Source of the DNA: a virus | Taxonomy: Duplodnaviria; Caudoviricetes | Virus record (IMG/VR): IMGVR_UViG_3300017763_003980 | Strand: one strand, 5' to 3' | Length of the DNA: 64,000 nt | Shown: positions 1 to 52,614 of the stretch, in pieces | How the letters are laid out: every line of letters begins with the position of its first letter | Position numbering within the stretch: position 1 is the first letter of the stretch | Made by a program: the position numbers and the translations under genes | Notes under the pieces: generated by a model | Database searches by the model: none | What the model saw: only the letters and a program-made list of their open reading frames with translations | What the model was told of the DNA's origin: nothing

Positions 1-67
1 ACACACTCTTTGCATTCATGTCAATTGCCGCAAGTATATCTTTTACTGGGAGTTTTTGCTGTGCCAT
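1..67 (-). CDS. 5' end of a gene running off the window edge (MAQQKLPVKDILAAIDMNAKSV...); possibly a clamp-loader small subunit (gp62-like)
   Basis: Translated by hand. ATG at 67 overlaps the 3' end of kdsB and the frame is open to the edge. The KLPxKDILAAID start resembles, from memory, gp62-like proteins of large T4-related phages. Only 22 codons are visible. Confidence 0.4.
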   Translation of the reverse strand, partial: MAQQKLPVKDILAAIDMNAKSV

Positions 68-723
68 TCTTCTAAGTCCTCCGGAGTATTAATCTCCATA
101 CCATTATATTGTACACTCAAAACTCCTACTTGCCAACCGTTTTTTAACCATCGGAGTTGTTCTAATTTTTCTACTTCTTCTTCCTGGGTTACTTCTAGTT
201 TACTATACAGTTCTAATGGATTACGTTTGTATCCATATACTCCCAGATGCCAGTCGCCATAACCAGTTAAGCCTCTGCCGAACCACAGTGCTTGATCACC
301 AGCACGTACCATTTTTACTGAACTTGGATCATTTTGTTTTTCTTCAGGCATTTGTGTATACACCGAAGTAACTGAATAATTTTTTAAATGCCAAATACAT
401 TTTTCAATAATATCAACAGTTACATCTGGCATATCACCTTGTACATTTATAAACTGTTTGTATTGGTCGAACCTACTATCTCTCAATACACCTGCACATC
501 TTTCAGTACCGTTTTCGTAAGGATCGTCATGTACAACTATATTTCCTTTAGGAAATAAACTAGCTATACGCTTACTATCTGTAAGCACAAAGGTGTCTAA
601 GCCCGTCTCTAAGCAACGATCGTATACTCTACGTATCATCGGTACTCCGTTAAGTAACTTCAACGGCTTTTCAGGGAAGCGTGTTGATGCTAACCTAGCC
701 GGTATTAGTATAGCTGTATTCAT
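43..723 (-). CDS. kdsB: 3-deoxy-D-manno-octulosonate cytidylyltransferase (CMP-Kdo synthetase)
   Basis: Motifs IPARLASTRFPEKPL, GTERC, INVQGD, HLGVYGY and EKLEQLRWL; directly downstream of kdsA. Confidence 0.95.
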   Translation of the reverse strand: MNTAILIPARLASTRFPEKPLKLLNGVPMIRRVYDRCLETGLDTFVLTDSKRIASLFPKGNIVVHDDPYENGTERCAGVLRDSRFDQYKQFINVQGDMPDVTVDIIEKCIWHLKNYSVTSVYTQMPEEKQNDPSSVKMVRAGDQALWFGRGLTGYGDWHLGVYGYKRNPLELYSKLEVTQEEEVEKLEQLRWLKNGWQVGVLSVQYNGMEINTPEDLEEWHSKNSQ

Positions 724-1477
724 GTATCTCTCCTACTACTCGATCAAAGTCCTCTAGCTTTAGCATATTAGGACCGTCACTTGGTGCATTATCTGGGTCA
801 GGGTGTACTTCTATAAAGAAATTCCTAATCCCCAAAGCACTACCTGCACGGCATAAGCCAGGAACGTAATCGCGATTACCGCCGCTACTGCCTCCAAGAC
901 CGCCTGGTTTCTGTACTCCGTGCGTGGCATCAAGTACCACAGGGGTGCTATAATTATGAAGCATATAGTCCAAACCAGTAAAGTCAACAACAAGAGTATT
1001 GTATCCAAAACTTGTTCCTCTCTCTGTTATCCAAACATCTTTAGCACCTTCTGTCTTTGATAGTATACCGTCCATGTCCCAAGGTGCAAGGAACTGGCCT
1101 TTCTTAATGTTTACAATTTTATCTGTAGCACAAGCCGCTTGTAGTAAATCAGTTTGTCTACATAAGAATGCAGGTATCTGTAGCACGTCTACAGCATCAT
1201 TGTAGTAGTTTACTATGTCTTTAATTTGTTCTACTGTATGAACGTCTGTGAGCGTCTTAGAGCCCACTACACCACGTATCTCTTGAAAGTCATGTAGTGT
1301 TGTATTAAAGCCTACTCCACGCTTGCCTTTCATGCTACTTCTATTAGCTTTATCAAAACTAGCTTTAAAATAATATTCTGCACCATACTTACGACATACA
1401 TCTGCACAATGTTGTGCAATCTCTAAGCTATGTTCTAAGCTTTCGTGTTGGCAAGGTCCTGCAATTATTCTAATCAT
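695..1477 (-). CDS. kdsA: Kdo-8-phosphate synthase
   Basis: Motifs IAGPC, FKASFDKANRSS, LQIPAFLCRQTDLL, NIKKGQFLAPWDM, ERGTSFGYNTLVVD, DATHGVQKPG and EVHPDPDNAPSDGPN. Confidence 0.97.
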   Translation of the reverse strand: MIRIIAGPCQHESLEHSLEIAQHCADVCRKYGAEYYFKASFDKANRSSMKGKRGVGFNTTLHDFQEIRGVVGSKTLTDVHTVEQIKDIVNYYNDAVDVLQIPAFLCRQTDLLQAACATDKIVNIKKGQFLAPWDMDGILSKTEGAKDVWITERGTSFGYNTLVVDFTGLDYMLHNYSTPVVLDATHGVQKPGGLGGSSGGNRDYVPGLCRAGSALGIRNFFIEVHPDPDNAPSDGPNMLKLEDFDRVVGEIHEYSYTNTG

Positions 1478-1929
1478 TATTCATTTCTCATTATTAAAGT
1501 TTCGTCGTCCCAAGATTCTTTCTGTACATAAGGCTTTGGTGGCATTGTAAATAATGCTCGTGTAAAGTATGGATAAACATTACTTGGCTTACGTGCAAAT
1601 ACTACCCATCTATGTCCCATTCCTTGTGTAAAAGTAGGATACGTTTCGTCTATGAAATCTAACATACTTGTGCCTGTAGTAAACACATCATCACATATTA
1701 AAGGAAAGTCGTCGGAGTTACCAGATGCATATTCGTTTAACGCTTCGGCTAGTTTTAGTCCTCCACGAGGTATACCAACTGCTTCACTGAATGGACGATC
1801 TTGATAATCCATAATCATCTTTGCTAGACACTTCCATTCTTCATCTGTAATAGCATCACATTCTAGTTTCCATTGAAGTGATAATCCTGCGTGGCTGGTA
1901 AAGTTACCAAGTTGAAATAGTTCTGTCAT
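1477..1929 (-). CDS. Type I phosphoribosyltransferase, orotate PRTase-like
   Basis: VGIPRGG and the PRPP-binding LICDDVFTTGTSM motif. Start moved to 1929 (SD AAGGAG, ATGA overlap with the upstream gene). Confidence 0.75.
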   Translation of the reverse strand: MTELFQLGNFTSHAGLSLQWKLECDAITDEEWKCLAKMIMDYQDRPFSEAVGIPRGGLKLAEALNEYASGNSDDFPLICDDVFTTGTSMLDFIDETYPTFTQGMGHRWVVFARKPSNVYPYFTRALFTMPPKPYVQKESWDDETLIMRNE

Positions 1930-2201
1930 TTGTTCTCCTTTGATAGTAAATAGATATCTAAAACTTTTGAAAGACATTTTTTTAATGTCTTGTTTGTTCT
2001 AGCCAGCTCTGTTATTTCTTGCCAGTCTTTATATGTAAACAAGTCTCCTTGTTCCTTTGCTTTAGCACGATTGATGCCATCTGCATCTCCGCCTATAATC
2101 CATCTCGGAATGTCTTTATAAGGTTCATCTCTGTAACGTGCATACACAACGTTATCAACTCTTTCGTATATAAGTGCTTCGCCAGTTATTAGATTACTCA
2201 T
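1926..2201 (-). CDS. Hypothetical protein (91 aa)
   Basis: Tightly packed in the operon, with overlapping start and stop codons on both sides. Confidence 0.7.
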   Translation of the reverse strand: MSNLITGEALIYERVDNVVYARYRDEPYKDIPRWIIGGDADGINRAKAKEQGDLFTYKDWQEITELARTNKTLKKCLSKVLDIYLLSKENK

Positions 2202-2560
2202 TATTTTACCGGTGTACCAATAGTGCGTCTTACAATGTCATCGTGATTGAACTCTGCCCAATATAGCTCAAATGCTACACCATCTTTTAGTCCTTCAAAC
2301 TGATGTATCTTGCCAGGTTTAACTTGTGTAAAGTCACCTGCTTTTAAAATAGTTTCATCGACTAAACCTTCTTGTGCGCCATCTTGCCAAACACGAATTA
2401 GCATTTCGCCTGACTCAACAAAGAAGCCATTCCATTTAAATTGATGTTCATGCTCTGAACATTTGTATCCTGCTTTATATTCAATACGGTGAAATTCTAA
2501 TACACCATTTGCATGGACTAACTCTGTGTTACCCCAAATTTTACCAGCTTTGATTCCCAT
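2201..2560 (-). CDS. Small cupin (sugar isomerase-like)
   Basis: KIWG start, cupin metal motif 1 SEHEHQFKWNGFFVESG and motif 2 VKPGKIHQF. Confidence 0.8.
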   Translation of the reverse strand: MGIKAGKIWGNTELVHANGVLEFHRIEYKAGYKCSEHEHQFKWNGFFVESGEMLIRVWQDGAQEGLVDETILKAGDFTQVKPGKIHQFEGLKDGVAFELYWAEFNHDDIVRRTIGTPVK

Positions 2561-9590: not shown

Positions 9591-10408
9591 CTGATTCCAT
9601 ACTCCCTCAGCGTCGGTAGCACAGTTCCTGCTACCATTTCTTGTGGATTATATTGACAATAACCTAACCAGTTTTGCCAACCTATTACTTTTTCTTCTTC
9701 TACATACAACGGATTTTCGATACTACTTAAATCAGTTCCGCAAGCAAAATCAGCAGCATTTGGTGCTAGTGTAAAACAAGGTATGCCATAGCCAATTGCT
9801 TCTGTTGCAGCTATACTATTATATGTTACTACAGCAAAAATATTATCTTCTTCAAATTGATGATATATGCTATTGTCTCTGACTCGTTCTCTTCTAAGGC
9901 CTTTGTTTCTTACAATTACTTCTCTATCAGTATATTTTTTTATTTCAGCAATAGTATTTTCAATCCATTCATCTCGTTTAATGCCATAAAAGGCACAAGG
10001 TTTATCGGATGGTGTAACTAACAATATAGCACTTCCATTTTTCTTCCAACCTTTAAATCTAATATCTTGGCTGTCAATGCAATTATTAAACCTATCTGCT
10101 GGTAGATCAAATCTTGGTTGGCTGTGTTGCATGCCGTTAGGTACAACACGATGCCAATGTTTCTTTTTGTTTAGATTTCCGATATACCCTGTATCTATAT
10201 AATAGTATGGACGCTTTTGAAACTCGCACATATTAACTGTTTTTCTCTGCGCCATACTACGAAATACAACAGGAATATTTGTATCCCAGTGTTGTAAAGC
10301 TTTCCATCCTGGTATCTCTTCAGATTGAGAACCTTGTGCAAAGCAACTAACAATAGCATCTCGCGTATCTATTGCTAACATCTCTGCACCTGTTTTTAGT
10401 TCAACCAT
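9587..10408 (-). CDS. KpsS/KpsC-like GT-B glycosyltransferase, paralog 3 (HP motif replaced)
   Basis: YYIDTGY, TYNSIAATEAIGYGIPCF and WQNWLGYCQY; has VRNK where the paralogs have RxHP. Confidence 0.55.
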   Translation of the reverse strand: MVELKTGAEMLAIDTRDAIVSCFAQGSQSEEIPGWKALQHWDTNIPVVFRSMAQRKTVNMCEFQKRPYYYIDTGYIGNLNKKKHWHRVVPNGMQHSQPRFDLPADRFNNCIDSQDIRFKGWKKNGSAILLVTPSDKPCAFYGIKRDEWIENTIAEIKKYTDREVIVRNKGLRRERVRDNSIYHQFEEDNIFAVVTYNSIAATEAIGYGIPCFTLAPNAADFACGTDLSSIENPLYVEEEKVIGWQNWLGYCQYNPQEMVAGTVLPTLREYGIR

Positions 10409-11084
10409 TATTCATCATCTCCTGGAGCTCTATTTTCCAAGTACTATGCCAGCCACAGTTTCGGTAATTTTCGAACCAAGGCCCCCCTTCTGTATAATGT
10501 AATGCTTTAGGTGAACCGTCTTTGCCTTCTTCATACCAATCAGTAAGCCAATTCCATTCATGACTAATTTGTCCTATTTCGGAGTCATCTAGCCAACTAA
10601 ATCTATGTAAGTATGCACCTGTAATTTCTGGATTGTTAACTAAATTTAGATCTAATTTTTTATTACTTGGATGCCCGCAATTAAATAATACAACACTAGA
10701 CCAGTTTTTGCGGGGATAAACTGTTTGTGTTTGTCCATCCATTTTTACTCCTTCTTTAGGAGTATAATCATGCTGAGCACACATAACTGCATACTTGTTA
10801 TCAGCTTGATCAAATAGTTCTTTAATATCTTCAATAAAAATAATATCACTATCACAGAACAATGCCCAGCCATCAAAATTACATAGTTCTGGTACTAAAA
10901 ATCTAGTGAAAGTAAATTCTGTGCTTGCTAGTTTATCTATTGGTCTTGAATACCAACCTTGTTCTCTTAATTCATTTTGCTTTAGTGGACGTACTTCTAC
11001 ATTCTTATTACGTGATTCAAGACTATGCTTACATACTTGATAAGCAATATCTTCCCTAGTATCATATCCTACAAATACTTTCAT
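10401..11084 (-). CDS. GT8-like GT-A glycosyltransferase (plant CDI-like family)
   Basis: VFVGYDTRE, STEFTFTRFLVP, FCDSDII, KNWSSVVLFNCGHP and HYTEGGPWF. Confidence 0.8.
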   Translation of the reverse strand: MKVFVGYDTREDIAYQVCKHSLESRNKNVEVRPLKQNELREQGWYSRPIDKLASTEFTFTRFLVPELCNFDGWALFCDSDIIFIEDIKELFDQADNKYAVMCAQHDYTPKEGVKMDGQTQTVYPRKNWSSVVLFNCGHPSNKKLDLNLVNNPEITGAYLHRFSWLDDSEIGQISHEWNWLTDWYEEGKDGSPKALHYTEGGPWFENYRNCGWHSTWKIELQEMMNNG

Positions 11085-11863
11085 TAATCCCTTCTCTCTA
11101 TATCTTCTTCAATGCATTCACTGCCCCATTGTATTTCAAGAATGTGTGCATTTTCTGTTCCGTAGTTGGCTGGTTTATGCCATACTTCTTTATCTATTTC
11201 ATATGGTAACGTGTGTGGTTTAAGTTGTACTACAGTTACATTGCCGTGCCATTCTGTTGTCATGTCCACAACACCTTCTAGTATTATCCACTGCTCTGAA
11301 CGTTTGAAATGTTTTTGATCACTTAGACTTTTGCCAGGATAAATTACAAGCTCTTTTACTTTGTAACCTTTTTCTGGTTTGTGATCTAACACACGCCAAT
11401 ATCCCCACTGTCGTTCTGTCTTTTGTGTTTTCCATTCGTCTAATATCCAGCTACTACTATTAGCTTTATTTTCGCCGCCTACTCCGTAAATAAATTTTAT
11501 ATTTTTATAATTGCCAAATAATTTCTCTTCTGGTACTGCTCCTTCTACTCTATCTCCGCCGTTAGCAAAAATTATTTCATCATTGGAATTAGTAGTAGAT
11601 TGAAGTAAAAATATAGCTCCACCTGCTGTGTCATCGTCATCATTAAAACTAATAACTCTATCTACTACACTAAGTTCTTTTATAATAGATAGTCTTTCTT
11701 CAAAAGGCATAAATGGTCTACCTTTTTTGCGTGTAAGCCAGTCATCTGAGTTAAGTCCAACAACTAGTTTTGTACCTAACTGTTTGGCAGCTTTAAAGTA
11801 AGCAATATGCCCACTATGTAGAGGATCAAATCCTCCGGTGACTAAAACGTACTTCTCTGTCAT
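11084..11863 (-). CDS. Cytidylyltransferase (HxGH family) fused to a mannose-6-phosphate-isomerase-type cupin
   Basis: N-terminal TGGFDPLHSGH, GLNSD and FANGGDR; C-terminal ERQWGYWRVL...SDQKHFKRSEQW...WH. Confidence 0.85.
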   Translation of the reverse strand: MTEKYVLVTGGFDPLHSGHIAYFKAAKQLGTKLVVGLNSDDWLTRKKGRPFMPFEERLSIIKELSVVDRVISFNDDDDTAGGAIFLLQSTTNSNDEIIFANGGDRVEGAVPEEKLFGNYKNIKFIYGVGGENKANSSSWILDEWKTQKTERQWGYWRVLDHKPEKGYKVKELVIYPGKSLSDQKHFKRSEQWIILEGVVDMTTEWHGNVTVVQLKPHTLPYEIDKEVWHKPANYGTENAHILEIQWGSECIEEDIERRD

Positions 11864-11900: not shown

Positions 11901-12386
11901 TTATGGTTTGTATGCTGCTACACCTAAATGTTTTATTGTAGGTTTGTGTAATGATCTTATATTTGTATATCCGCATTGTTCTAGTAATGCTTTCATTTGA
12001 GGGTAGTTATAACCACTCTTGTGCAAATCCCAAGTTTCTCCCTTTTCAGCTTCTCTTTGCCATCCCCAGAAACCTGCTCTAGCATGTGCTATGTTCTTAC
12101 CTACTTGCCATTGATGTACATGAAAGTCCATATTAGGACAACGTATATCTATTTCACCACCTGATTGTAAAATATTAAAACATGCTTTGAGCCAACGTTC
12201 TCCTTGTTCGAATGTAAGATGTTCTATAAAGTGTCTTGAAAAGATATGTGTGACTGTATTAAATGGTATTAGTAAATCTATTTCATAAGCAGGACATACA
12301 TAATCTATTCCCGACAAATTTCTAATATCACAAGTTTTGTAATCTGGATAGGTTGGAGTCTCTCCGCAACCAAATTCTATTTTCAT
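11901..12386 (-). CDS. Class I SAM-dependent methyltransferase
   Basis: IEFGCG, IFSRHFIEH and LQSGG; short Methyltransf_11-like form. Confidence 0.75.
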   Translation of the reverse strand: MKIEFGCGETPTYPDYKTCDIRNLSGIDYVCPAYEIDLLIPFNTVTHIFSRHFIEHLTFEQGERWLKACFNILQSGGEIDIRCPNMDFHVHQWQVGKNIAHARAGFWGWQREAEKGETWDLHKSGYNYPQMKALLEQCGYTNIRSLHKPTIKHLGVAAYKP

Positions 12387-13342
12387 GTTGCAAAAAACTT
12401 TCTAACAAAGTTGTTTATAATTATAGACACGACTTTGTTGTTAACATGTCTTGGTGTGTTGTCTTCAAACAGTGTAGGGAAGTCTGTATGAGCTCCTACC
12501 CAACGTACCATTTCATAGCTAGGCCAGTAATAGCAAGTAGATGGATTATGTTGTGCAAAGAATTGATCAAGTGCTACACGTAACGTCGACTTACTTACAC
12601 AGTCACTAATCATCGTCGGTCTTCCCATAAAGGTTGCATTAAGTGGTACAGGACTAAGTGTAAAAATAACCTGAGTGTCTGCTCCAGCGTGAGTAGTAAT
12701 TAAATCGTAAATACGTTTCATATTATCTACGTTTTCTTGTACTGTACTAGTTACACATTCATGCTTGTCTGGATCAAAATATTTTGCAGGAACCCCACGC
12801 CAAAACACTTGTTTAGTGGCTCTATCTCGCCAAACTTCTGCTAATCCGAATGTAACTACTACCCCTTTTGTCTTTTTAAAATGCTCCAAGAGAGCCTTTT
12901 GTTCATCTTCAGGTTCCCATTTATACGCACCTGCTTGTGGATCGTTGTCATACCAATAAGCATCTGTACTACGATCTCCTGTAAGTGCCCATTCAAGATA
13001 TTGCCTTACTGCAAATGAATTATTAAGCCCTTCTGGTACATTTATGTAATCACTATTTTTTCCATTTGCTTTTAACCAGTTACGCAATCTTTCTGCAAAA
13101 CAACTTCCCATTGTAACTACTGTGCCGTCAGCTGGTATAGTAGGAGTTTTAGGTCCGTGACCTGTAAACACAAATTCTTCTGCTAGCTTTTCTAAATCGT
13201 CAAACTGAGATTTGTCTTTTGGAAAATAAGATATTAAATCGTTTGTGTGCCATTTGCTTTTTACTAAATCTATATTACCAGCTGACATTTTTCCGCTACC
13301 TTTTGAATTAGCAGTAGCATTTGCTAATCTAGCTTTAGCCAT
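12383..13342 (-). CDS. GSCFA-domain protein (SGNH-like, polysaccharide-associated)
   Basis: Signature MGSCFAE, VTFGLAEVW, TLSPVPL, SKSTLRVA, YWPSYE and RHV. Confidence 0.85.
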   Translation of the reverse strand: MAKARLANATANSKGSGKMSAGNIDLVKSKWHTNDLISYFPKDKSQFDDLEKLAEEFVFTGHGPKTPTIPADGTVVTMGSCFAERLRNWLKANGKNSDYINVPEGLNNSFAVRQYLEWALTGDRSTDAYWYDNDPQAGAYKWEPEDEQKALLEHFKKTKGVVVTFGLAEVWRDRATKQVFWRGVPAKYFDPDKHECVTSTVQENVDNMKRIYDLITTHAGADTQVIFTLSPVPLNATFMGRPTMISDCVSKSTLRVALDQFFAQHNPSTCYYWPSYEMVRWVGAHTDFPTLFEDNTPRHVNNKVVSIIINNFVRKFFAT

Positions 13343-13343
13343 A

Positions 13344-14264
13344 TTATATAATTCCCCTTAATAAGTGATACCATGGATCGCCTTTAGCAATTTCATCTTC
13401 TCTCCATTGACAGTAACCTAAGTTATTAAGCCATTGTTGTCGATCAAAATACTCTAAGTTTTCAAGTGTATTTAAGTTCTTATTAGAACATTCCCAAGCC
13501 ATTGAACTAGGGCATAAACTAAAAGTAGGTATGCCTTCGCATATACTTTCTGTTAGTGCATTACTATTAAAGCCTACTACTGCATATGCATTTTTAAAAT
13601 CTTCGTATAGTCCTGCTCCGCCTTCTAAGTTTCCAGAGCCATGCATATTTTTACTAATTGATATTCCGCTAGTGTCTATCTTTTCAAGTGCTTGTCTTTG
13701 CCTATCCATTCTAGCAGGATGCATTCTAGCAACAATAGGACGGTCAGTATACTTGCGTATTTCGTTAATAGTATTAGCAATAAAATTATCAAATGTTTTA
13801 TGTTTAGTCATTAAGTTTTTTAAACTACTATCGCCAGGGCGTTGCATTGCTAGTAATATATACTCACCGCCTTTTTTCCAGTCTTTTATTTCAATATTTT
13901 GATCTGCTTGTATTTGATTCCATCTATCGTCTGGACAGTTTTCGTTACAATAGTTTCCTTCATCTCTAAAATAACTTGTCCAACTCCATCTATGATATGC
14001 TTTAGGATGAGGAGGAAATGGCATGTTACGTCTAAACACACTACTTTCGACTACAATATATGGCTTCCCACTGTCGCGTATATATTCATACTGTGCTCTA
14101 TACTTTCTAAAGAATTTATTTTCTAATATATTTGCTTGTACAAATACATCAGCTTTTTCTATTATAGCTTGATTTTCCCAAGGTACAACTTTAAAATTAG
14201 GTAAGTGGGGAAGAGGGTGTGTTCTATATGAACCTTCTATTCCTACCACAAGCTTATCCAACAT
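13344..14264 (-). CDS. KpsS/KpsC-like GT-B glycosyltransferase, paralog 4
   Basis: QxxxD motif (MQRPGDSSL), ARMHP, FNSNALTESICEGIPTF and DRQQWLNNLGYCQW. Confidence 0.65.
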   Translation of the reverse strand: MLDKLVVGIEGSYRTHPLPHLPNFKVVPWENQAIIEKADVFVQANILENKFFRKYRAQYEYIRDSGKPYIVVESSVFRRNMPFPPHPKAYHRWSWTSYFRDEGNYCNENCPDDRWNQIQADQNIEIKDWKKGGEYILLAMQRPGDSSLKNLMTKHKTFDNFIANTINEIRKYTDRPIVARMHPARMDRQRQALEKIDTSGISISKNMHGSGNLEGGAGLYEDFKNAYAVVGFNSNALTESICEGIPTFSLCPSSMAWECSNKNLNTLENLEYFDRQQWLNNLGYCQWREDEIAKGDPWYHLLRGII

Positions 14265-14814
14265 TATTAAAATATAATCCTCTATTTTTTACAAAAGCTT
14301 TTTTACCCTTTTTACCTAAATTTAGTGTAGAATTTAGTCGTAAGAACCTTGTTTTGCTTTCGTCTAGTTTAAATCCGTTTTCTTCAAAACGTTCAATCCA
14401 ATAATCTTCTTCTTGTAGATTAACATGATGATGTCCGTTCCATCCTGGAGGTGCATATGTTACTACTACACTCTTTGCACGTTTAAAAGTATCCATGTAG
14501 TTGTTCATATACTGTTCTTCCACATGTTCTAAAAATTCTACACTCCATGCTAAATCATAAGTATCTTCTATCTGCGGGCTACCTTTAGTATAGTCGTGTA
14601 TAATAAAATAATTAGGATCAAATCGTGTTAACGTATAATCACCGTCAACGCCCATAGTGCGTAGTCCTTTGCTCTTAGCTAGTTCTACCATGCCGCCTGG
14701 TCCGCAACCTATATCAATAAAACTTTCTATGCCTTGATTAATTAACCATTGTAATGCACCTTCGTCTATGTGAGTTTTACCTTGGTGTCCTCCTAGGTGA
14801 GATTCTAATGTCAT
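14254..14814 (-). CDS. Class I SAM-dependent methyltransferase
   Basis: IDIGCGPG, GVDG and WSVEFLEHV. Confidence 0.85.
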   Translation of the reverse strand: MTLESHLGGHQGKTHIDEGALQWLINQGIESFIDIGCGPGGMVELAKSKGLRTMGVDGDYTLTRFDPNYFIIHDYTKGSPQIEDTYDLAWSVEFLEHVEEQYMNNYMDTFKRAKSVVVTYAPPGWNGHHHVNLQEEDYWIERFEENGFKLDESKTRFLRLNSTLNLGKKGKKAFVKNRGLYFNNVG

Positions 14815-38362: not shown

Positions 38363-38803
38363 ATGGATGCAAATATAGTATGTAGTGGAGCCTTATTTTA
38401 TACACTATCAACAAATAGATTTTTATTTTTACACCGTAGAAATGGTAAAAAATCTGATGTTTGGGGATTAGTTGGTGGCACAAATGAAGGTACAGAAACA
38501 CCCTGGGAAGGTTTGAAACGAGAAATTGTTGAAGAAATAGGTGATGTTACTACTATTAAAAAAACACTTCCGTTAGAAAGTTTCCTCAGCAATGACAAAA
38601 AATTCCTGTTCCATACATATCTATGCGTAGTAAAAGATGAATTTATTCCGCAATTAAATAAAGAACATGATGGATATGCTTGGTGTAGTTTTACAAAATG
38701 GCCAAAGCCTTTACATCATGGATTGCGTAATACCCTCCAAAGTAAAATTAATCTTAGCAAGTTAGAAACTGTCTTTCAAACTATTAATTTACTTGACAAT
38801 TAA
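38363..38803 (+). CDS. NUDIX hydrolase
   Basis: Nudix box GGTNEGTETPWEGLKREIVEEIG; LNKEH. Confidence 0.9.
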   Translation: MDANIVCSGALFYTLSTNRFLFLHRRNGKKSDVWGLVGGTNEGTETPWEGLKREIVEEIGDVTTIKKTLPLESFLSNDKKFLFHTYLCVVKDEFIPQLNKEHDGYAWCSFTKWPKPLHHGLRNTLQSKINLSKLETVFQTINLLDN

Positions 38804-38827: not shown

Positions 38828-39976
38828 ATGAAAGTTCTAGTTCTTGGTGATGTAATAATTGACAAATATATTTACGGTACTTCTACTCGTATTAGTCCGG
38901 AAGCACCAGTGCCTATTGTTAACCTAGATAATATAAAAACTTCTTTAGGTGGTGCAGGACTTGTAGTTGAAAATCTCAAAAGTTTAGGTGTAGATGTTAC
39001 ACTTTTACAAACCAATCAACCAAGAAGTACTAAAACCAGAATTATTTCAGACGGGCATTATGTAACACGATTAGATGAAGACGAGAAAGCAGACAGCGAA
39101 GCTGTACTACGAAATGTCTTAAGCAGTGATTTTTCACAGTATGAATATGTTATATTAAGTGATTACAACAAAGGGGTGTTAACACATTCTAACAGGATTA
39201 TAGAGCATATAAACAGTCAAGGTTGTAAAGTTATTGTAGATCCTAAACGCCATCGTAAGTGTTATGAAGGTGCATGGTTAGTTAAACCTAATGCTAAAGA
39301 ATATAAAGATTTTGGTTTTGATAAACATAAAGGTAATATAATAACAACTAGTGCAAATGGTGCAGTATCAGCAAAGTTTGAAGATGAAACACATTTTATA
39401 ATTCCAGAACAAGTAGAAGTAAATGATGTTACCGGCGCAGGTGATTGTTTTCTTGCTGCCTTTGTATATGGACTAACACAGGATAAAACTATTAAGCAGT
39501 GTTTAGAGCTTGCTACTAAAGGTGCAACTGAAAGTGTTAAACATTTAGGCACGTATATATTATCAAAAACTGACTTAGAAGATACTATTGTGTTTACTAA
39601 TGGGTGTTTTGATATACTGCATATTGGCCATTTAAAACTGCTTAGACACGCTCGTAGCTTGGGAAATAGACTTATAGTAGCTATTAACAGTGACGCAAGT
39701 GTTAAGCGTTTAAAAGGAGAAACTAGACCCATTAATAGTCAAGAAACTAGAAAAGAAACACTAGAACAATTAAGCATAGTTGACGAAGTTATAATTTTTG
39801 ATGAGGATACTCCTTATGAAATAATTAAGGAAATTAAACCTAGTATAATTGTAAAAGGTGGAGATTATACTGTAGAAACAGTAGTTGGAAATGATTTAGC
39901 AGAAGTTGCAATATTTCCAAAAGTAGACGGGTATTCTACTACTCAAATTGTAAAGGATATAAAAGTTGGAAATTGA
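38828..39976 (+). CDS. hldE: Bifunctional heptose-7-phosphate kinase / heptose-1-phosphate adenylyltransferase
   Basis: RISPEAPVP, LSDYNKG, VDPK, DVTGAGD (PfkB), then FTNGCFDILHIGH, INSDASVKRLKG and VKGGDY. Confidence 0.95.
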   Translation: MKVLVLGDVIIDKYIYGTSTRISPEAPVPIVNLDNIKTSLGGAGLVVENLKSLGVDVTLLQTNQPRSTKTRIISDGHYVTRLDEDEKADSEAVLRNVLSSDFSQYEYVILSDYNKGVLTHSNRIIEHINSQGCKVIVDPKRHRKCYEGAWLVKPNAKEYKDFGFDKHKGNIITTSANGAVSAKFEDETHFIIPEQVEVNDVTGAGDCFLAAFVYGLTQDKTIKQCLELATKGATESVKHLGTYILSKTDLEDTIVFTNGCFDILHIGHLKLLRHARSLGNRLIVAINSDASVKRLKGETRPINSQETRKETLEQLSIVDEVIIFDEDTPYEIIKEIKPSIIVKGGDYTVETVVGNDLAEVAIFPKVDGYSTTQIVKDIKVGN

Positions 39977-40598
39977 GATTAAGAATAATAAAGTTATAGT
40001 GCAAAACGCATTAAACGATGGAGAATTTTCAAATATAAGACATATTTTCTATGGCTATGATATACCTTGGTCGTACAACGATGGAATTGTAAACACTGAG
40101 GATATGAGTGATTTTCAATTTGTACATTTAGTATTTGATCACAGTAAAGCAGGTTACGGACCTATATGGGATAGTATAGTTCCTATTTTGGAAAAACTAA
40201 CACCGTCAAATGTAGTAAGGATTAAAGCTAATTTGCGTCCAAGAACAGGTGACATAGAAGCTAGTGGGTTTCATTGTGATGTTTGGATGCCCGGGGCTCT
40301 TACTGCTATATATTATCTTGATACAAACAACGGATATACAGAATTTAAAGATGGTGATAAGATTGCCAGTGTAGAAAATCAACTAGTAGTATTTCCTTCA
40401 AACTTACCACATCTAGGAACTAGTTGTACTGATCAAAATAGAAGAGTTATAATTAATTTTAATTTCTTTCCAACTACAGGATTATTAAATGCAACTGAGA
40501 TAAATCCTTCTGTAAATCCAATTACTGATCCTTTACTATCTGACACTGATAAAGAATATCACAGACATTGGGCTAAACCTATGAAGGGACTTCTATGA
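39966..40598 (+). CDS. Fe(II)/2OG oxygenase
   Basis: GFHCD, YYLDTNNGYT, VVFPSNLPH and RVIINFN; TTG start overlapping the end of hldE. Confidence 0.75.
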   Translation: MEIEIKNNKVIVQNALNDGEFSNIRHIFYGYDIPWSYNDGIVNTEDMSDFQFVHLVFDHSKAGYGPIWDSIVPILEKLTPSNVVRIKANLRPRTGDIEASGFHCDVWMPGALTAIYYLDTNNGYTEFKDGDKIASVENQLVVFPSNLPHLGTSCTDQNRRVIINFNFFPTTGLLNATEINPSVNPITDPLLSDTDKEYHRHWAKPMKGLL

Positions 40599-41413
40599 AA
40601 ATATTAGTCACAGGATACAAAGGATTTATAGGGCAAAATGTATGCAATTATCTTTTAACTCAAGGACATGATGTTGAAGGATGGGAATATATGGATAATG
40701 CTGTACCTGATCCTAGTGCATATGATTGGGTAATACATCTTGGTGCAATTACTAGTACAACTTATACCGATGTAGATCGTATAATAGATCAAAATTTTGA
40801 ATACAGTATGAGATTGCTACAGGTTTGTGAAAACTATGGAACAAACTTTCAATATGCATCAAGTGCTAGTGTGTATGGTCCTACAACACATTTTACTGAA
40901 GATGGCCCTTTGCTACCACAAAGTCCTTATGCTTGGAGCAAGTATTTGTTTGATAGATTTGTAAAGCAACACAAGGATGAATTTACAGTACTTGTACAAG
41001 GATTTAGATATTTTAATGTATATGGTCCAGGAGAACACGATAAAGGTGATCAAGCTTCGCCTTATACTAAGTTTACAAAACAAGCACAAGAAGATGGCGA
41101 GATCAAAGTTTTTCAACTTAGTGAACATTACAAAAGAGATTTTGTATGCGTAAGAGATATTTGTAGAGTACACGAAAAAATGCTTAGTGTTGATTCTAGT
41201 GACATTTACAATGTTGGTACTGGTGTTGCAGAAAGTTTTGAAACTGTAGCACAAACTATTGCTAAAAAATACAATGCTACAATAAAATATATCCCAATTC
41301 CAGATAACATTAAAAATCAATATCAAAAATATACGTGTGCCAACATTGACAAATTAAATAGTGTTATAGATATGGAATGGACTAGTATAAAGGATTATAT
41401 TAATGAAAATTAG
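40595..41413 (+). CDS. hldD: ADP-L-glycero-D-manno-heptose 6-epimerase
   Basis: TGYKGFIG, HLGA, YASSASVYG, YAWSK, RYFNVYGP and RDFVCV; located within the heptose operon. Confidence 0.85.
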   Translation: MKILVTGYKGFIGQNVCNYLLTQGHDVEGWEYMDNAVPDPSAYDWVIHLGAITSTTYTDVDRIIDQNFEYSMRLLQVCENYGTNFQYASSASVYGPTTHFTEDGPLLPQSPYAWSKYLFDRFVKQHKDEFTVLVQGFRYFNVYGPGEHDKGDQASPYTKFTKQAQEDGEIKVFQLSEHYKRDFVCVRDICRVHEKMLSVDSSDIYNVGTGVAESFETVAQTIAKKYNATIKYIPIPDNIKNQYQKYTCANIDKLNSVIDMEWTSIKDYINEN

Positions 41414-42086
41414 AATTGACCAGTTCGATGTTATCTTACCATTTGGTTGTGCAATCTATCAATCTAAATTTACTAAAGATGAGCTAGATTTTTTAAAAAT
41501 GCTAGCTGAAGATTCTAGAGAAGGTAAAAACGCAAGTGAAAAACTAGTTGGTAATATACAAACACAAACAGAACCTGTAGTAAAAGATAAAAATACTCAA
41601 GAAAGATTTTCTGAAATATTACATCCTCATATAGTAAACTACTTAACTGTAGACCAAAAAAGACAAAAAGTAATGTATGAAAATTCTATTAGGCCACCAG
41701 ATTTTGTCGATGAAGAAGATATGCAAAATGTTAATTATGACTTAGGTACTGGACCCTGGTTTAACTACATGTGGGAAAATGAATTTAATCCGTTGCATGC
41801 ACATCACGGTTCAATAAGTGGAATAGCAATGATTCAAGTTCCTACAGAAATAAAAAATGAAAGATATAATACTGAAACTCCCAACTACGAAACACATGGA
41901 GATTTAGAATGGGTCGATGGAAATAATCATTATAAAGTTATACCCGAAGAAGGAAGTATTTTCTTATTTCCATCGCATTTAAAACATATAGTATATCCTT
42001 GGCACAGTCATGTAGAGAGAATTACATCTAGCTGGAATATATTTAACATAGAGTATCCTAAGAAAATTGAGATTGCATATGAGTAG
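41403..42086 (+). CDS. Fe(II)/2OG oxygenase-like protein
   Basis: NPLHAH, EEGSIFLFPSHLKHIVYP and RITSSWN. Confidence 0.7.
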   Translation: MKIRIDQFDVILPFGCAIYQSKFTKDELDFLKMLAEDSREGKNASEKLVGNIQTQTEPVVKDKNTQERFSEILHPHIVNYLTVDQKRQKVMYENSIRPPDFVDEEDMQNVNYDLGTGPWFNYMWENEFNPLHAHHGSISGIAMIQVPTEIKNERYNTETPNYETHGDLEWVDGNNHYKVIPEEGSIFLFPSHLKHIVYPWHSHVERITSSWNIFNIEYPKKIEIAYE

Positions 42087-42468
42087 ATTAGAAGGTCATG
42101 TAAAAAAGGGATGGGGTTACGAACTTATATGGGCTACAAATGACAAATACTGTGGTAAGATAATGGTGTTTGAAAAAGTAGGTGCAAAGTTCAGTATGCA
42201 TTTTCATCATGAAAAAGATGAAACATGGTTTGTAAATAGTGGCAAATTTAAAGTCAGATGGATAGACACTAGTAACGCAATGATGTTTGAAAAAGAATTA
42301 AATGAAGGAGATACCTGGCATAATCCTCCTTTACAACCTCATCAACTAGAAGCACTAGAGCCTATGAGCTCAGTAACAGAAGTAAGTACACCAGATTCAG
42401 TTGAAGATAATTATAGACTTATACCAGGAGATAGTCAATCTGCAGACACGGAAATTAGCAATGATTGA
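42079..42468 (+). CDS. Small cupin (sugar isomerase-like)
   Basis: KGWGYE, SMHFHHEKDETW and PLQPHQ. Start moved to 42079. Confidence 0.8.
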   Translation: MSRLEGHVKKGWGYELIWATNDKYCGKIMVFEKVGAKFSMHFHHEKDETWFVNSGKFKVRWIDTSNAMMFEKELNEGDTWHNPPLQPHQLEALEPMSSVTEVSTPDSVEDNYRLIPGDSQSADTEISND

Positions 42469-43081
42469 TATTGCATGGAGCAATGACATTGATAGGGGCC
42501 CTAATTGGATTGCTCCAAAGTGTGTAGTTGGATTGGATAGGGATGGTGTTATTAATAAAGATTTAGGTACTTATTGCTATAAGAGTAAAGATTTTGAACC
42601 TATTGAAGGTAGCATAGAAGCTATTTCTCAATTACGTCAACTAGGACATAAAGTTGTAATTATTACAAATCAAGGAGGCATAGAGAACGGATTATTTACT
42701 GAAGATGACGTAGATAATTTACATAATCATTTATTTGAACTACTTGGCGAAGCAGGATGTCAAAGTATAGATGGCATTTATTATAGTGCTAGTAGCCGAA
42801 AAAATGATATGTATGCAAAGCCTAATATAGGTATGTTCAAACGTTGCGAAAAAGAAGTTCCGCATGTAAAATTTAATCAAGGATATTATGTAGGTGATAA
42901 AATATCTGATTTAAAGGCAGCTATGAAAGTTGGTGCAAAGCCAATACTAGTACGCACAGGATACGGAAAAGAAACTGAAGAATTAATTAACAAACGATTT
43001 ACTTATAAGTCAATAAAAAAGCGTACCAAAGTATTTGATACGCTTTTAGATTTTGTTAATTATCTTACAGATCAAGCCTGA
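42461..43081 (+). CDS. gmhB: D,D-heptose-1,7-bisphosphate phosphatase (HAD)
   Basis: LDRDGVIN, ITNQGGI, KPNIGM and VGDKISDL. Start moved to 42461. Confidence 0.9.
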   Translation: MIDIAWSNDIDRGPNWIAPKCVVGLDRDGVINKDLGTYCYKSKDFEPIEGSIEAISQLRQLGHKVVIITNQGGIENGLFTEDDVDNLHNHLFELLGEAGCQSIDGIYYSASSRKNDMYAKPNIGMFKRCEKEVPHVKFNQGYYVGDKISDLKAAMKVGAKPILVRTGYGKETEELINKRFTYKSIKKRTKVFDTLLDFVNYLTDQA

Positions 43082-50787: not shown

Positions 50788-52614
50788 TCAGTTATTCCAT
50801 ACTGTAATAAGCTTGTTAAATTCAGGCAAATATAAATATTCAATATCACTAGTAGATAGAGTACGTATAGCATCATCTAAGGTTTCTACTAATGGTTCTC
50901 CTCCTAAATTAAAACTTGTGTTAAAGATGATAGGAACGCCTGTTTTTTCTTTGAATGTTTTTATAATATCGTAGTAATGAGGATTTTGTTCTCTACTTAC
51001 TGTTTGAATCCTGCATGTACCGTCAACGTGTATAATAGCAGGAATTTTCTCTTCGACTCCTGGTTGACAATTTACAGCATACATCATCGTAGGTGAACTT
51101 TCCATGCCACGCAGATCAAACCATTCATGTGCATCCTCTTCAAGTATACTACCAGCAAATGGTCTAAAATATTCTCTACGTTTAATTTCGTTTACAAAGT
51201 CTTTGCCGTCTTCAAATGTTGGATCAAACATTAAGCTTCTATTTCCTAATGCACGTGGTCCATTTTCAGATCTGCCTTGAAAGTTTGCAACAATATTCTT
51301 AGAAGTCATTAGTGCTACAACATCTTCGTGTGTAGCGTCTTTTATTTCTGCGTCATATTTTTCTACTGTGCTATAAACATCTTGTTCTGAATATTCGTAT
51401 TTAGGTCCTAAAAATACATCATTAGCACGATTATTTACTTTTGTATCTTGACTAATTTTATAGTGTTGATACAATGCCGCCCCCATCGCTGTTCCGGCAT
51501 CATTAGAAATAGGTTCTACATAAATTTCAATACCTTCATCTTTTAAAGCATCTAAGTAATGATAATTTGCAACACAATTTAATCCATATCCGCCGCTAAT
51601 TACAACTTTGTTTTGTTTTGATATTTTCACAGCATGTCTAATAAGTTTTACTACAGCCTCTTGTGTCGCTTGCTGTACAGCATATGCCAAATCTCTTCTA
51701 TTTTGCAAATATGTAACATCGTCTTGATCAAATTCTAGATCAACCTCATCACTATTTAATTCTTTATATTGTGGCATATTGATTACAGCACCATTAGGAT
51801 ATCTTGGAACAATTAAATTTCTATTAGTAAGAGGTATATTCATATTACTATCATTATCCATAATAGAAGGAATATTATCATTAGGTTTGCCGTAAGGTGA
51901 TAGCCCCATTGTTTTTCCAGCTTCAATTGCTGTAAATCCGCAATATTCTGTAACAGCTTCATATGCTTTTACAATTCCTGCACGATCGTGCATAAATGTA
52001 TTATACACTGCACCCGGGTCGTCCCAGCCATCACCGCCCCAGTTATCAATGTTAACAGAAGGTATTGCATCTCTAGCGCCTAAACTTTTATGCAAAGTTT
52101 TAAAGTTTGCTGGGTAATTACATTTATAAATGCTTTCAGTTTCCCATATAGTCATTTGATCATTTTGATGTTGTAAAGGGAAAAATGTTCCAGCGCCGTC
52201 AACAATAAGTGCAACTGCACTATCAAATCCTGATCTATAAAATGCCATTGCGGCATGCATTTTATGATGGTGCATAGCTACATCAACTACTTGACCTTCT
52301 GTTCGAGGATCTTCTGAATTTCTTCTAGGGGTCTCAATCAGTCCTATTTTTCTTGCAAGACCGCTATACACATCTTCACCAGAATAATCTAATATTCCTG
52401 CGGTATTTAATGGAGTAGTATGACAAATAACCAAATGATCAAGTTTATCAGTATACTCTTTAATTTTAAGCATACTAGCTAATGCGCCGCCATCGTACTT
52501 TAAACGTGTTAGTCTTTCTTCTTCAATACTGAATACAATCTTGCCATCTTTAAGTAAGCATACTCCTGAGTTATGCCCTCTAGCTACACCTGCAATCCAA
52601 ACTGGCTTAGTCAT
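50788..52614 (-). CDS. O-carbamoyltransferase (NodU/CmcH/TobZ family)
   Basis: GHNS, EEERLTR, HHKMHA, DGAG, GKTMGLSPYG, GGYGLNCVAN, GPRALGNRS, KRREYFRPFA and NTSFN. Confidence 0.95.
   Translation of the reverse strand: MTKPVWIAGVARGHNSGVCLLKDGKIVFSIEEERLTRLKYDGGALASMLKIKEYTDKLDHLVICHTTPLNTAGILDYSGEDVYSGLARKIGLIETPRRNSEDPRTEGQVVDVAMHHHKMHAAMAFYRSGFDSAVALIVDGAGTFFPLQHQNDQMTIWETESIYKCNYPANFKTLHKSLGARDAIPSVNIDNWGGDGWDDPGAVYNTFMHDRAGIVKAYEAVTEYCGFTAIEAGKTMGLSPYGKPNDNIPSIMDNDSNMNIPLTNRNLIVPRYPNGAVINMPQYKELNSDEVDLEFDQDDVTYLQNRRDLAYAVQQATQEAVVKLIRHAVKISKQNKVVISGGYGLNCVANYHYLDALKDEGIEIYVEPISNDAGTAMGAALYQHYKISQDTKVNNRANDVFLGPKYEYSEQDVYSTVEKYDAEIKDATHEDVVALMTSKNIVANFQGRSENGPRALGNRSLMFDPTFEDGKDFVNEIKRREYFRPFAGSILEEDAHEWFDLRGMESSPTMMYAVNCQPGVEEKIPAIIHVDGTCRIQTVSREQNPHYYDIIKTFKEKTGVPIIFNTSFNLGGEPLVETLDDAIRTLSTSDIEYLYLPEFNKLITVWNN

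Follow-up and report, generated by a model that had tools for sequence, protein, structure and literature searches.

The synthesis of ADP-heptose (adenosine diphosphate heptose) is a textbook pathway of five steps, and the locus described here raises the question of how the first of them is carried out in a phage whose heptose operon has no gene for the usual enzyme, the sedoheptulose-7-phosphate isomerase GmhA. To our knowledge, GmhA is treated as the universal first enzyme of the pathway and is used as a genome marker of heptose-making capacity. Such use includes recent cross-kingdom surveys of heptose immune agonists (PMC11461863). The DNA under study is a stretch of 64,000 nucleotides (hereafter, the window) of the IMG/VR virus record IMGVR_UViG_3300017763_003980, which belongs to a large, T4-like, marine phage of about 35% G+C and carries baseplate, fibre and sheath-like genes. 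In its heptose operon a cupin of 129 amino acids (aa) is encoded between a 2-oxoglutarate (2OG) oxygenase gene and gmhB, and we consider it probable, with moderate confidence, that this protein is a metal-dependent sedoheptulose-7-phosphate isomerase, which performs step one of ADP-heptose synthesis and stands in for the SIS-fold enzyme GmhA. The same candidacy had been put forward in an initial annotation made from the DNA letters, and it is now supported by linkage, distribution and the missing SIS genes, the activity itself being what we infer.

A cupin inside the heptose operon

The operon had been described as holding the other ADP-heptose steps, and the profile matches of HldE, HldD and GmhB (Table 1) bear this out; all three proteins stay under the NCBIfam curated cut-offs, yet in each case the named model is the best match of the protein. 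From hldE through gmhB every junction is overlapping, by 4-11 nucleotides (nt). The cupin gene is a real open reading frame (ORF) which extends from the ATG at 42079 to the TGA at 42466-42468, its ATG lying 8 nt inside the preceding 2OG oxygenase gene (stop at 42086) and its end overlapping gmhB (ATG at 42461) by another 8 nt. Translation is not likely to begin at the upstream TTG at 42067, since the alignment of homologues sets in at the ATG of 42079. The protein passes Cupin_2 (PF07883) with 30.0 bits against a gathering cut-off of 27.2 (E 4.2e-7), and residues H41, H43, E48 and H88, which align to the ligand positions of OxdC, make up the full cupin metal motif. The earlier description of a metal-binding cupin coupled to gmhB is thus upheld, metal binding being predicted from the motif. 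AlphaFold2 predicts, with high confidence (pLDDT 94.3), one jelly roll of 11 strands, and two further residues, K27 and R113, are conserved across the family. A tblastn search of the cupin within the window returned no paralogue, the other two window cupins being related to it at profile and motif level only.

Although the cupin is proposed for the same reaction and the same place in the pathway as GmhA (LpcA; TIGR00441, PF13580), the two proteins differ in fold, size and sequence: GmhA has a SIS, Rossmann-like fold of about 190 aa, whereas the cupin is a jelly roll of 129 aa with an unrelated sequence. No Pfam or NCBIfam match of the cupin to GmhA or SIS_2 was found, and the signature GNGGS...QH..E...Q..H is absent from it. 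It is not a member of the GmhA family and at most works like one.

Absence of a SIS-fold isomerase from the phage lineage

No GmhA- or KdsD-like ORF was found in the 64-kb window by hmmsearch and phmmer at E<=10, searches in which the positive control worked, so the operon without GmhA of the initial annotation is confirmed for the whole window. The IMG/VR fragments related to the window phage are 92-169 kb long and rated 28-47% complete; a complete relative of 357,559 bp (CheckV 100%), with a cupin 74% identical to that of the window, has no SIS or SIS_2 match. Likewise, neither domain is found in a 335-kb T4-like phage contig whose operon is the same and whose cupin is 89% identical. This contig (PBPT01000016.1) and a second one of 153 kb (PBPT01000082.1) derive from a metagenome-assembled genome (MAG) of a Neomarinimicrobiota bacterium, and both carry a T4-type major capsid protein together with the operon of the window; they are phage contigs misbinned into a bacterial genome, and the SIS genes of the MAG sit on contigs other than the 335-kb one. 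No SIS isomerase was found in 15 further complete phage genomes with the cupin family. Of the two ways out that had been considered initially, a gmhA at another site of the phage genome is very unlikely in the lineage of the window, since the complete and 335-kb relatives are devoid of SIS genes, and a step supplied by the host, which may still apply to phages, is weakened by a GmhA-less bacterium with the cupin, described below.

Linkage, gene order and fusions

Linkage was counted within 10 kb of the cupin in the best 80 viral loci for each of three seed types, these loci being close relatives of the seed. With the window-type seed, HldD was present in 80 of 80 loci, the adenylyltransferase in 78, the kinase in 76, a minimal HAD protein (mini-HAD) in 5 and GmhA in none; with a P-SSM2-type seed the corresponding counts were 69, 64, 68, 70 and 0. 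A sister-type seed gave far lower linkage (adenylyltransferase 15, kinase 1 and GmhA 2 of 80). Gene orders vary (hldE-hldD-cupin-gmhB, hldE-cupin-gmhB-hldD, adenylyltransferase-cupin-kinase-hldD) and in each of these the cupin is within the module.

Fusions were sought among the representatives of 50%-identity clusters of the cupin family. The cupin is fused behind an adenylyltransferase in P0239, ahead of one in P0246, and behind a mini-HAD domain in P0181, P0211 and P0140; when 34 longer members of the family were compared with the proteins of the module, none proved to be fused to a dehydrogenase. These fusions show pathway membership and co-expression, not which step the cupin performs, and some of them may merely reflect adjacent overlapping genes. 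In another member, P0156 (321 aa), the family cupin is fused to a 2OG oxygenase domain of the Asp/Arg beta-hydroxylase type, which echoes the adjacency of oxygenase and cupin in the window.

The cyanophage cassette and its labels

A tblastn search of the phage collection with the cupin returned 36 records, all of them cyanophages or marine viruses, at 30-44% identity (most at 36-44%). In cyanophages the homologues sit in the 'LPS gene' (lipopolysaccharide gene) cassette T4-GC 304-308 (P-SSM2 gp309-313 and equivalents), which comprises an adenylyltransferase, a PfkB kinase, a 'phosphoheptose isomerase', the cupin and an HldD-like epimerase. This is the same five-function module as in the window, usually placed by carbamoyltransferase and tail-fibre genes; however, cyanophages have a separate kinase and adenylyltransferase and a mini-HAD phosphatase, whereas the window has a fused HldE, a full-length GmhB and two interleaved oxygenases.

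The gene labelled 'phosphoheptose isomerase' was considered as an instance of GmhA co-occurring with the cupin and was rejected as such, given that its product of 106-115 aa has no SIS match and displays the HAD motifs DxDGT, TAR, GKP and DDK. Judging by these motifs, T4-GC 306 looks like a minimal heptose-bisphosphate phosphatase and its label is probably wrong; the label is still listed among these cyanophage genes (PMC7378029). The cupin itself is labelled 'cysteine dioxygenase' (RefSeq) or 'nucleotidyltransferase' in cyanophages, and the former identity was rejected as well, no match to such a Pfam family being found. With T4-GC 306 read as a HAD phosphatase, the five cassette genes cover all five steps only on the assumption that the isomerase is the cupin. 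None of the seven complete cyanomyophage genomes with the cassette has a SIS_2 domain in any frame. A review reports that heptose is absent from cyanobacterial LPS (PMC4515613), which makes a supply of heptose-7-phosphate by the host less likely for cyanophages. Near or adjoining the cassette, a transketolase-like gene is found in P-TIM68 and class II aldolase genes in S-SM2 and Bellamy (Table 1); such genes could supply the pathway with sedoheptulose-7-phosphate or a similar sugar phosphate.

Distribution of GmhA and of the cupin

Some viral heptose modules do contain a true GmhA, as in the order kinase-GmhA-adenylyltransferase and in Caulobacter phage Cr30, and there it displays the same tight linkage to kinase and adenylyltransferase as the cupin does elsewhere. 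A profile of the cupin family searched against the whole records of 18 viruses with GmhA and heptose genes, Cr30 included, found the cupin in none (control, 5/5), and in the phage collection the 36 records with the cupin and the 12 with GmhA do not overlap. Heptose modules usually carry either GmhA or the cupin. Routine co-occurrence of cupin and gmhA, which had been named at the outset as the observation that would speak against a substitution, was thus not found in the linked loci or in the GmhA records.

A scan of cellular genome contigs yielded six loci, of which at least two are the misbinned phage contigs mentioned above and only one is clearly bacterial, so the cellular distribution is poorly sampled. 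The bacterial locus lies on a 356,902-bp contig (L090, G007:C1) of a 1.3-Mb MAG of 'Candidatus Comchoanobacterales', which encodes Dot/Icm secretion genes, an ankyrin protein, KdsD and a GT9 glycosyltransferase; it has the arrangement hldE-hldD-cupin-gmhB and the MAG has no GmhA. Its cupin is 65% identical to that of the phage, against 38% for HldE, 48% for HldD and 47% for GmhB, and this higher conservation of the cupin suggests that the heptose cluster was exchanged between phages and bacteria. Within the 31 genomes of the order, HldE is present in 10, and seven of these have GmhA (adjacent to hldE in three); the cupin is present in one of the 10, the GmhA-less MAG, and two other HldE genomes have neither protein. 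Apart from it, the order yields a single cupin-like match, a protein of 37% identity whose genome has no HldE. In a sample at class level the cupin was found in only 2 of 300 genomes; in one of them, G081, GmhA is present and the cupin is 42% identical. A bacterium with the cupin cluster and no GmhA weakens the view that a host supplies the step.

Proposed reaction

We infer the substrate, the stereochemistry of the product, the metal and the catalytic residues as follows. The cupin would convert sedoheptulose-7-phosphate to D-glycero-D-manno-heptose-7-phosphate, with a divalent metal held by H41, H43, E48 and H88 binding the sugar, in its open-chain form, at O1 and O2, a carboxylate base shifting the proton between C1 and C2 via a cis-enediolate, and K27 and R113 as candidate binders of the 7-phosphate. 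The cis-enediolate mechanism is established for the phosphoglucose isomerases (PGI) and phosphomannose isomerases (PMI) of the cupin type, and serves as the model for this proposal. The product would then pass to the kinase domain of HldE, to GmhB, to the adenylyltransferase domain of HldE and finally to HldD, giving ADP-heptose. Since the module neighbours the fibre-like protein of 2125 aa together with a carbamoyltransferase, a setting resembling that in cyanophages, we suggest that the sugar probably decorates the virion fibre or a host surface glycan.

Relation to known cupin enzymes

A structure search with the cupin model matched 141 PDB chains with Z>=8, those listed at the top being cupins. 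In a near tie behind the best of them, the CapF domain considered below, stand quercetinase, KdgF, the 110-aa archaeal PMI 7zvy of T. kodakarensis (Z 13.8 over 105 residues, rmsd, i.e. root-mean-square deviation, 2.8 Å), D-lyxose isomerase (Z 13.4) and the cupin PGI of Thermococcus/Pyrococcus (1j3p, Z 12.6). The archaeal isomerases are single-domain metallo-cupins of a size similar to that of the window cupin which convert a ketose phosphate to an aldose phosphate; however, their identity to it is about 14-15% (profile E about 0.4) and many functionally unrelated cupins score equally. No match of the cupin to the D-lyxose/D-mannose isomerase family PF07385 was found at E<=0.01, its relatives giving faint matches only, and the match to the 2y0o profile (E 4.7e-5) covers only the C-terminal 40 residues. 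An assignment of function from the fold was rejected, as single-sequence, profile and fold searches of solved structures single out no reaction.

The cupin domain of type II PMI (PF01050; ManC, TIGR01479) shares with the window cupin an N-terminal W-G, the pattern S-x-[HQ]-x-H...E and a C-terminal E...D...R. PMI catalyzes the six-carbon analogue of the proposed reaction and, as the cupin, is also linked or fused to the nucleotidyltransferase of its own pathway; in contrast, the first metal ligand is His in the cupin and Gln in the PF01050-type fusion of the window, and the pathway of the cupin is that of heptose, not mannose. The TIGR01479 match of the cupin (E 5e-4) is far under the cut-off, and relatives of the cupin bear the JGI label 'mannose-6-phosphate isomerase-like'. 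By analogy with these matches and with the archaeal PMI fold, the parallel to phosphomannose isomerase drawn in the initial annotation seems plausible.

CapF acts on a UDP-4-keto sugar (UDP, uridine diphosphate) and is fused to its own dehydrogenase domain. The C-terminal domain of CapF (S. aureus capsule; 2zkl, 3vhr) is a metal cupin that acts in a sugar-nucleotide pathway next to a short-chain dehydrogenase, as the window cupin may do; yet the profile match is at E 0.06, and the fusions of the cupin family involve phosphatase and adenylyltransferase and never a dehydrogenase. Taken together with these comparisons, the cupin fits best as a variant among the cupin sugar-phosphate isomerases.

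Weighing the assignment

Several observations weigh against the isomerase assignment. In the fold comparison CapF, an epimerase acting on a nucleotide-sugar intermediate, ranks first with its cupin domain (Z 15.3, rmsd 2.2 Å, 112 residues; Foldseek E 5.6e-8), other top fold matches are dioxygenases and decarboxylases, and because epimerase, dioxygenases, decarboxylases and isomerases all match, the fold leaves the reaction unassigned. The PF01050 match stays under its gathering score (19.5 against 23.6 bits) and spans residues 7-69 only, and the PMI-like cupin of the fusion at 11084-11863 is stronger than the heptose cupin in this respect and could be the true isomerase. Family members 43-50% identical to the cupin (P0134, P0136, P0147 and P0149) have lost metal ligands (H41 to I/T/M, E48 to K/R, H88 to Y/V/A), and to judge from these substitutions are probably inactive or repurposed paralogues. 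The 160 window- and P-SSM2-type loci, being close relatives of their seeds, represent few lineages and not 160 observations, and likewise the cyanomyophage records with the cupin module are related to one another, so that the linked cases are partly non-independent. A sister subfamily about 50% identical, from other large T4-like phages, is mostly remote from heptose genes; in one of its loci the cupin adjoins UvdE and lies near PhoH, and no heptose kinase was found in three of eight complete sister-type genomes. A GmhA with the full signature and a family cupin lie about 5 kb apart on each of two IMG/VR contigs, L129/L335 and L154/L263, which are 26-28 kb long (spans L129:9884-15652 and L154:9959-16007; in the latter the cupin overlaps the adenylyltransferase gene), so GmhA and the cupin are not strictly exclusive. 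Finally, the bacterial support comes from a single MAG whose completeness is not established.

Part of this evidence would be accommodated if the cupin were a tailoring enzyme, which we hold to be unlikely: it would epimerize or rearrange a heptose intermediate or ADP-heptose, perhaps with the HldD-like dehydrogenase, while GmhA of the host gives heptose-7-phosphate, its models being the CapF cupin domain and the cupin epimerases of the Campylobacter heptose pathways. The rank of CapF among the structural matches, the frequent position of the cupin beside an HldD-like dehydrogenase gene, the two 2OG oxygenases of the operon, which suggest a modified product, and the two contigs with both GmhA and the cupin are all in its favor. 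Nevertheless, the cupin has the full three-His/one-Glu site and no Pfam match to the RmlC or FdtA families; for RmlC-like 3,5-epimerases no Pfam match was found at E<=0.01 and none is among the fold matches listed. Besides the fusion pattern discussed above, a bacterium with the cupin cluster and without GmhA would have no source of heptose-7-phosphate, the reported lack of heptose in cyanobacterial LPS points the same way, and the absence of the cupin from all 18 GmhA modules is odd, because tailoring should not depend on the origin of heptose-7-phosphate. Weak matches to the PMI domain, the mostly unlinked sister subfamily, the far better PF01050 match of the fused cupin at 11084-11863 and the presence of three such cupins in the window beside three different sugar-activation gene sets are instead what would be seen if the family were a general small phage sugar-phosphate isomerase (e.g. 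a PMI converting fructose-6-phosphate to mannose-6-phosphate) or one of broad specificity, the heptose step being located elsewhere and possibly falling to that fusion. We find this somewhat less probable still, since no phosphomannomutase or GDP-mannose (guanosine diphosphate mannose) pyrophosphorylase was seen among the operon genes scanned, the heptose linkage is very tight in three lineages and a bacterium, and even the eight complete sister-type genomes all encode an HldC-like adenylyltransferase, with a heptose kinase adjacent in five, and lack SIS_2 throughout.

A role outside sugar isomerization, as a metal-dependent dioxygenase or lyase or as a non-catalytic partner of the 2OG oxygenases, for instance in fibre modification before glycosylation, appears very improbable. 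Quercetinase and oxalate decarboxylase are the top Foldseek and profile matches, most sequence profiles hitting the latter, but these matches rest on the generic metal motif; the RefSeq label of the cyanophage homologues is countered by the absence of a Pfam cysteine dioxygenase match, and the P0156 fusion to a hydroxylase-type domain stands against several cyanophage modules and the bacterial cluster in which the cupin has no adjacent oxygenase. The assignment as the sedoheptulose-7-phosphate isomerase is the reading we retain.

The Kdo cluster and the other cupins of the window

The window also holds a set of genes for Kdo (3-deoxy-D-manno-octulosonate) at 43-2560, in which neither KdsC nor KdsD was recognized and a cupin lies about 0.7 kb from KdsA and KdsB. 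The parallel seen earlier between the two clusters (no KdsD, cupin present) holds as an observation, no SIS gene being found in the window or in the complete relative. The Kdo-cluster cupin and the heptose cupin share a pattern of WG, S-x-H-x-H, G, H, E and D, and the nearest matches of the former in the phage collection are heptose-module cupins. Among 80 viral loci related to the Kdo-cluster cupin, KdsA is near in 48, KdsB in 41 and a SIS gene in none. We regard a replacement of KdsD by this cupin as less secure than the corresponding heptose case. A broader view, which we advance only tentatively and consider rather doubtful, is that a virus-dominated family of mini-cupins displaced SIS isomerases in both LPS-core pathways, GmhA in the conversion of sedoheptulose-7-phosphate to heptose-7-phosphate and KdsD in that of ribulose-5-phosphate to arabinose-5-phosphate. 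If so, ADP-heptose and CMP-Kdo (CMP, cytidine monophosphate) would be made without any SIS enzyme in large marine phages and in at least one intracellular bacterium.

The adenylyltransferase-cupin fusion at 11084-11863 may serve some other activated sugar, as a second pairing of isomerase and nucleotidyltransferase. It has a GT8-like glycosyltransferase gene beside it, with genes for a GSCFA protein and a methyltransferase further along.

Other features of the surrounding DNA

A Nudix hydrolase gene opens the plus-strand block that contains the heptose operon, and a fibre-like protein, for which a structural role is suggested by composition and neighbours, is encoded convergently on it. Past that gene, about 8 kb from the operon, lies a carbamoyltransferase gene; a 'Nol-like carbamoyltransferase' adjoins the heptose modules of P-SSM2, S-CAM3, S-SSM7 and Bellamy too, and this shared neighbour hints at a carbamoylated heptose glycan.

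Table 1. Positions of the genes discussed, in the window unless a locus (L) is given
Feature	Position	Strand	Evidence or remark
Cupin, 129 aa, predicted three-His/one-Glu metal site; candidate sedoheptulose-7-phosphate isomerase	42079..42468	+	Cupin_2 E 4.2e-7; weak PF01050 E 1.1e-3
HldE, heptose-7-phosphate kinase (PfkB)/heptose-1-phosphate adenylyltransferase fusion	38828..39976	+	PF00294 and PF01467; NF008454 E 6.7e-91
2OG-Fe(II) oxygenase-like protein	39966..40598	+	PF13640 E 1.8e-4, under cut-off; shares 11 nt with hldE and 4 nt with hldD
HldD-like ADP-heptose 6-epimerase (short-chain dehydrogenase family)	40595..41413	+	TIGR02197 E 2.7e-66; PF01370 E 7.4e-38
Second 2OG-Fe(II) oxygenase (2OG-FeII_Oxy_5)	41403..42086	+	PF13759 E 8.3e-12
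GmhB, heptose-1,7-bisphosphate 7-phosphatase (HAD-IIIA)	42461..43081	+	NF006506 E 4.1e-41
Nudix hydrolase	38363..38803	+	PF00293 E 5.3e-15; same position in the 335-kb relative
Fibre-like structural protein (role suggested), 2125 aa	43072..49449	-	76% identity, same place in the 335-kb relative
NodU/CmcH-type carbamoyltransferase	50788..52614	-	PF16861 E 3e-58; PF02543 E 3e-29
HldC-like adenylyltransferase/type II PMI-like cupin fusion, 259 aa	11084..11863	-	PF01467 E 2.3e-14 and PF01050 E 3.5e-16; TIGR02199 E 2.3e-19, TIGR01479 E 1.7e-14
GT8-like glycosyltransferase	10401-11084		beside the fusion
GSCFA protein	12383-13342		further along
Methyltransferase	14254-14814		further along
Third cupin, Kdo-gene neighbour	2201..2560	-	Cupin_2 E 3.5e-7
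KdsA	695-1477	-	Kdo gene set
KdsB	43-723	-	Kdo gene set
166-aa protein, phosphoribosyltransferase-like motif	1477-1977	-	Kdo gene set; no Pfam match
P-SSM2 gp311 (T4-GC 306, probably mislabelled)	L003:6652-6996		HAD motifs
S-CAM3 T4-GC 306 gene (probably mislabelled)	L001:5688-6008		HAD motifs
P-TIM68 T4-GC 306 gene (probably mislabelled)	L007:7333-7671		HAD motifs
P-TIM68 transketolase-like gene	L007:3908-5053		near or adjoining the heptose cassette
S-SM2 class II aldolase	L004:4358-5032		near or adjoining the heptose cassette
Bellamy class II aldolase	L006:3844-4437		near or adjoining the heptose cassette

Significance

No paper on a cupin sedoheptulose-7-phosphate isomerase, or on cupins with the cyanophage heptose genes, was found in a literature search that left most subscription journals outside its reach. 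If the assignment is correct, the cupin would represent a clear non-orthologous displacement of GmhA and would add a new substrate class to the cupin sugar-phosphate isomerases. Two widespread labels would be corrected as well: that of 'cysteine dioxygenase' borne by the cupin, and that of 'phosphoheptose isomerase' borne by what looks like a mini-HAD phosphatase. Moreover, the assignment would explain how the pathway operates in dozens of cyanophages (P-SSM2, S-SM2, S-CAM1/3 and S-SSM7 among them), whose hosts have an LPS reported to be without heptose, and in abundant giant phages of the ocean.

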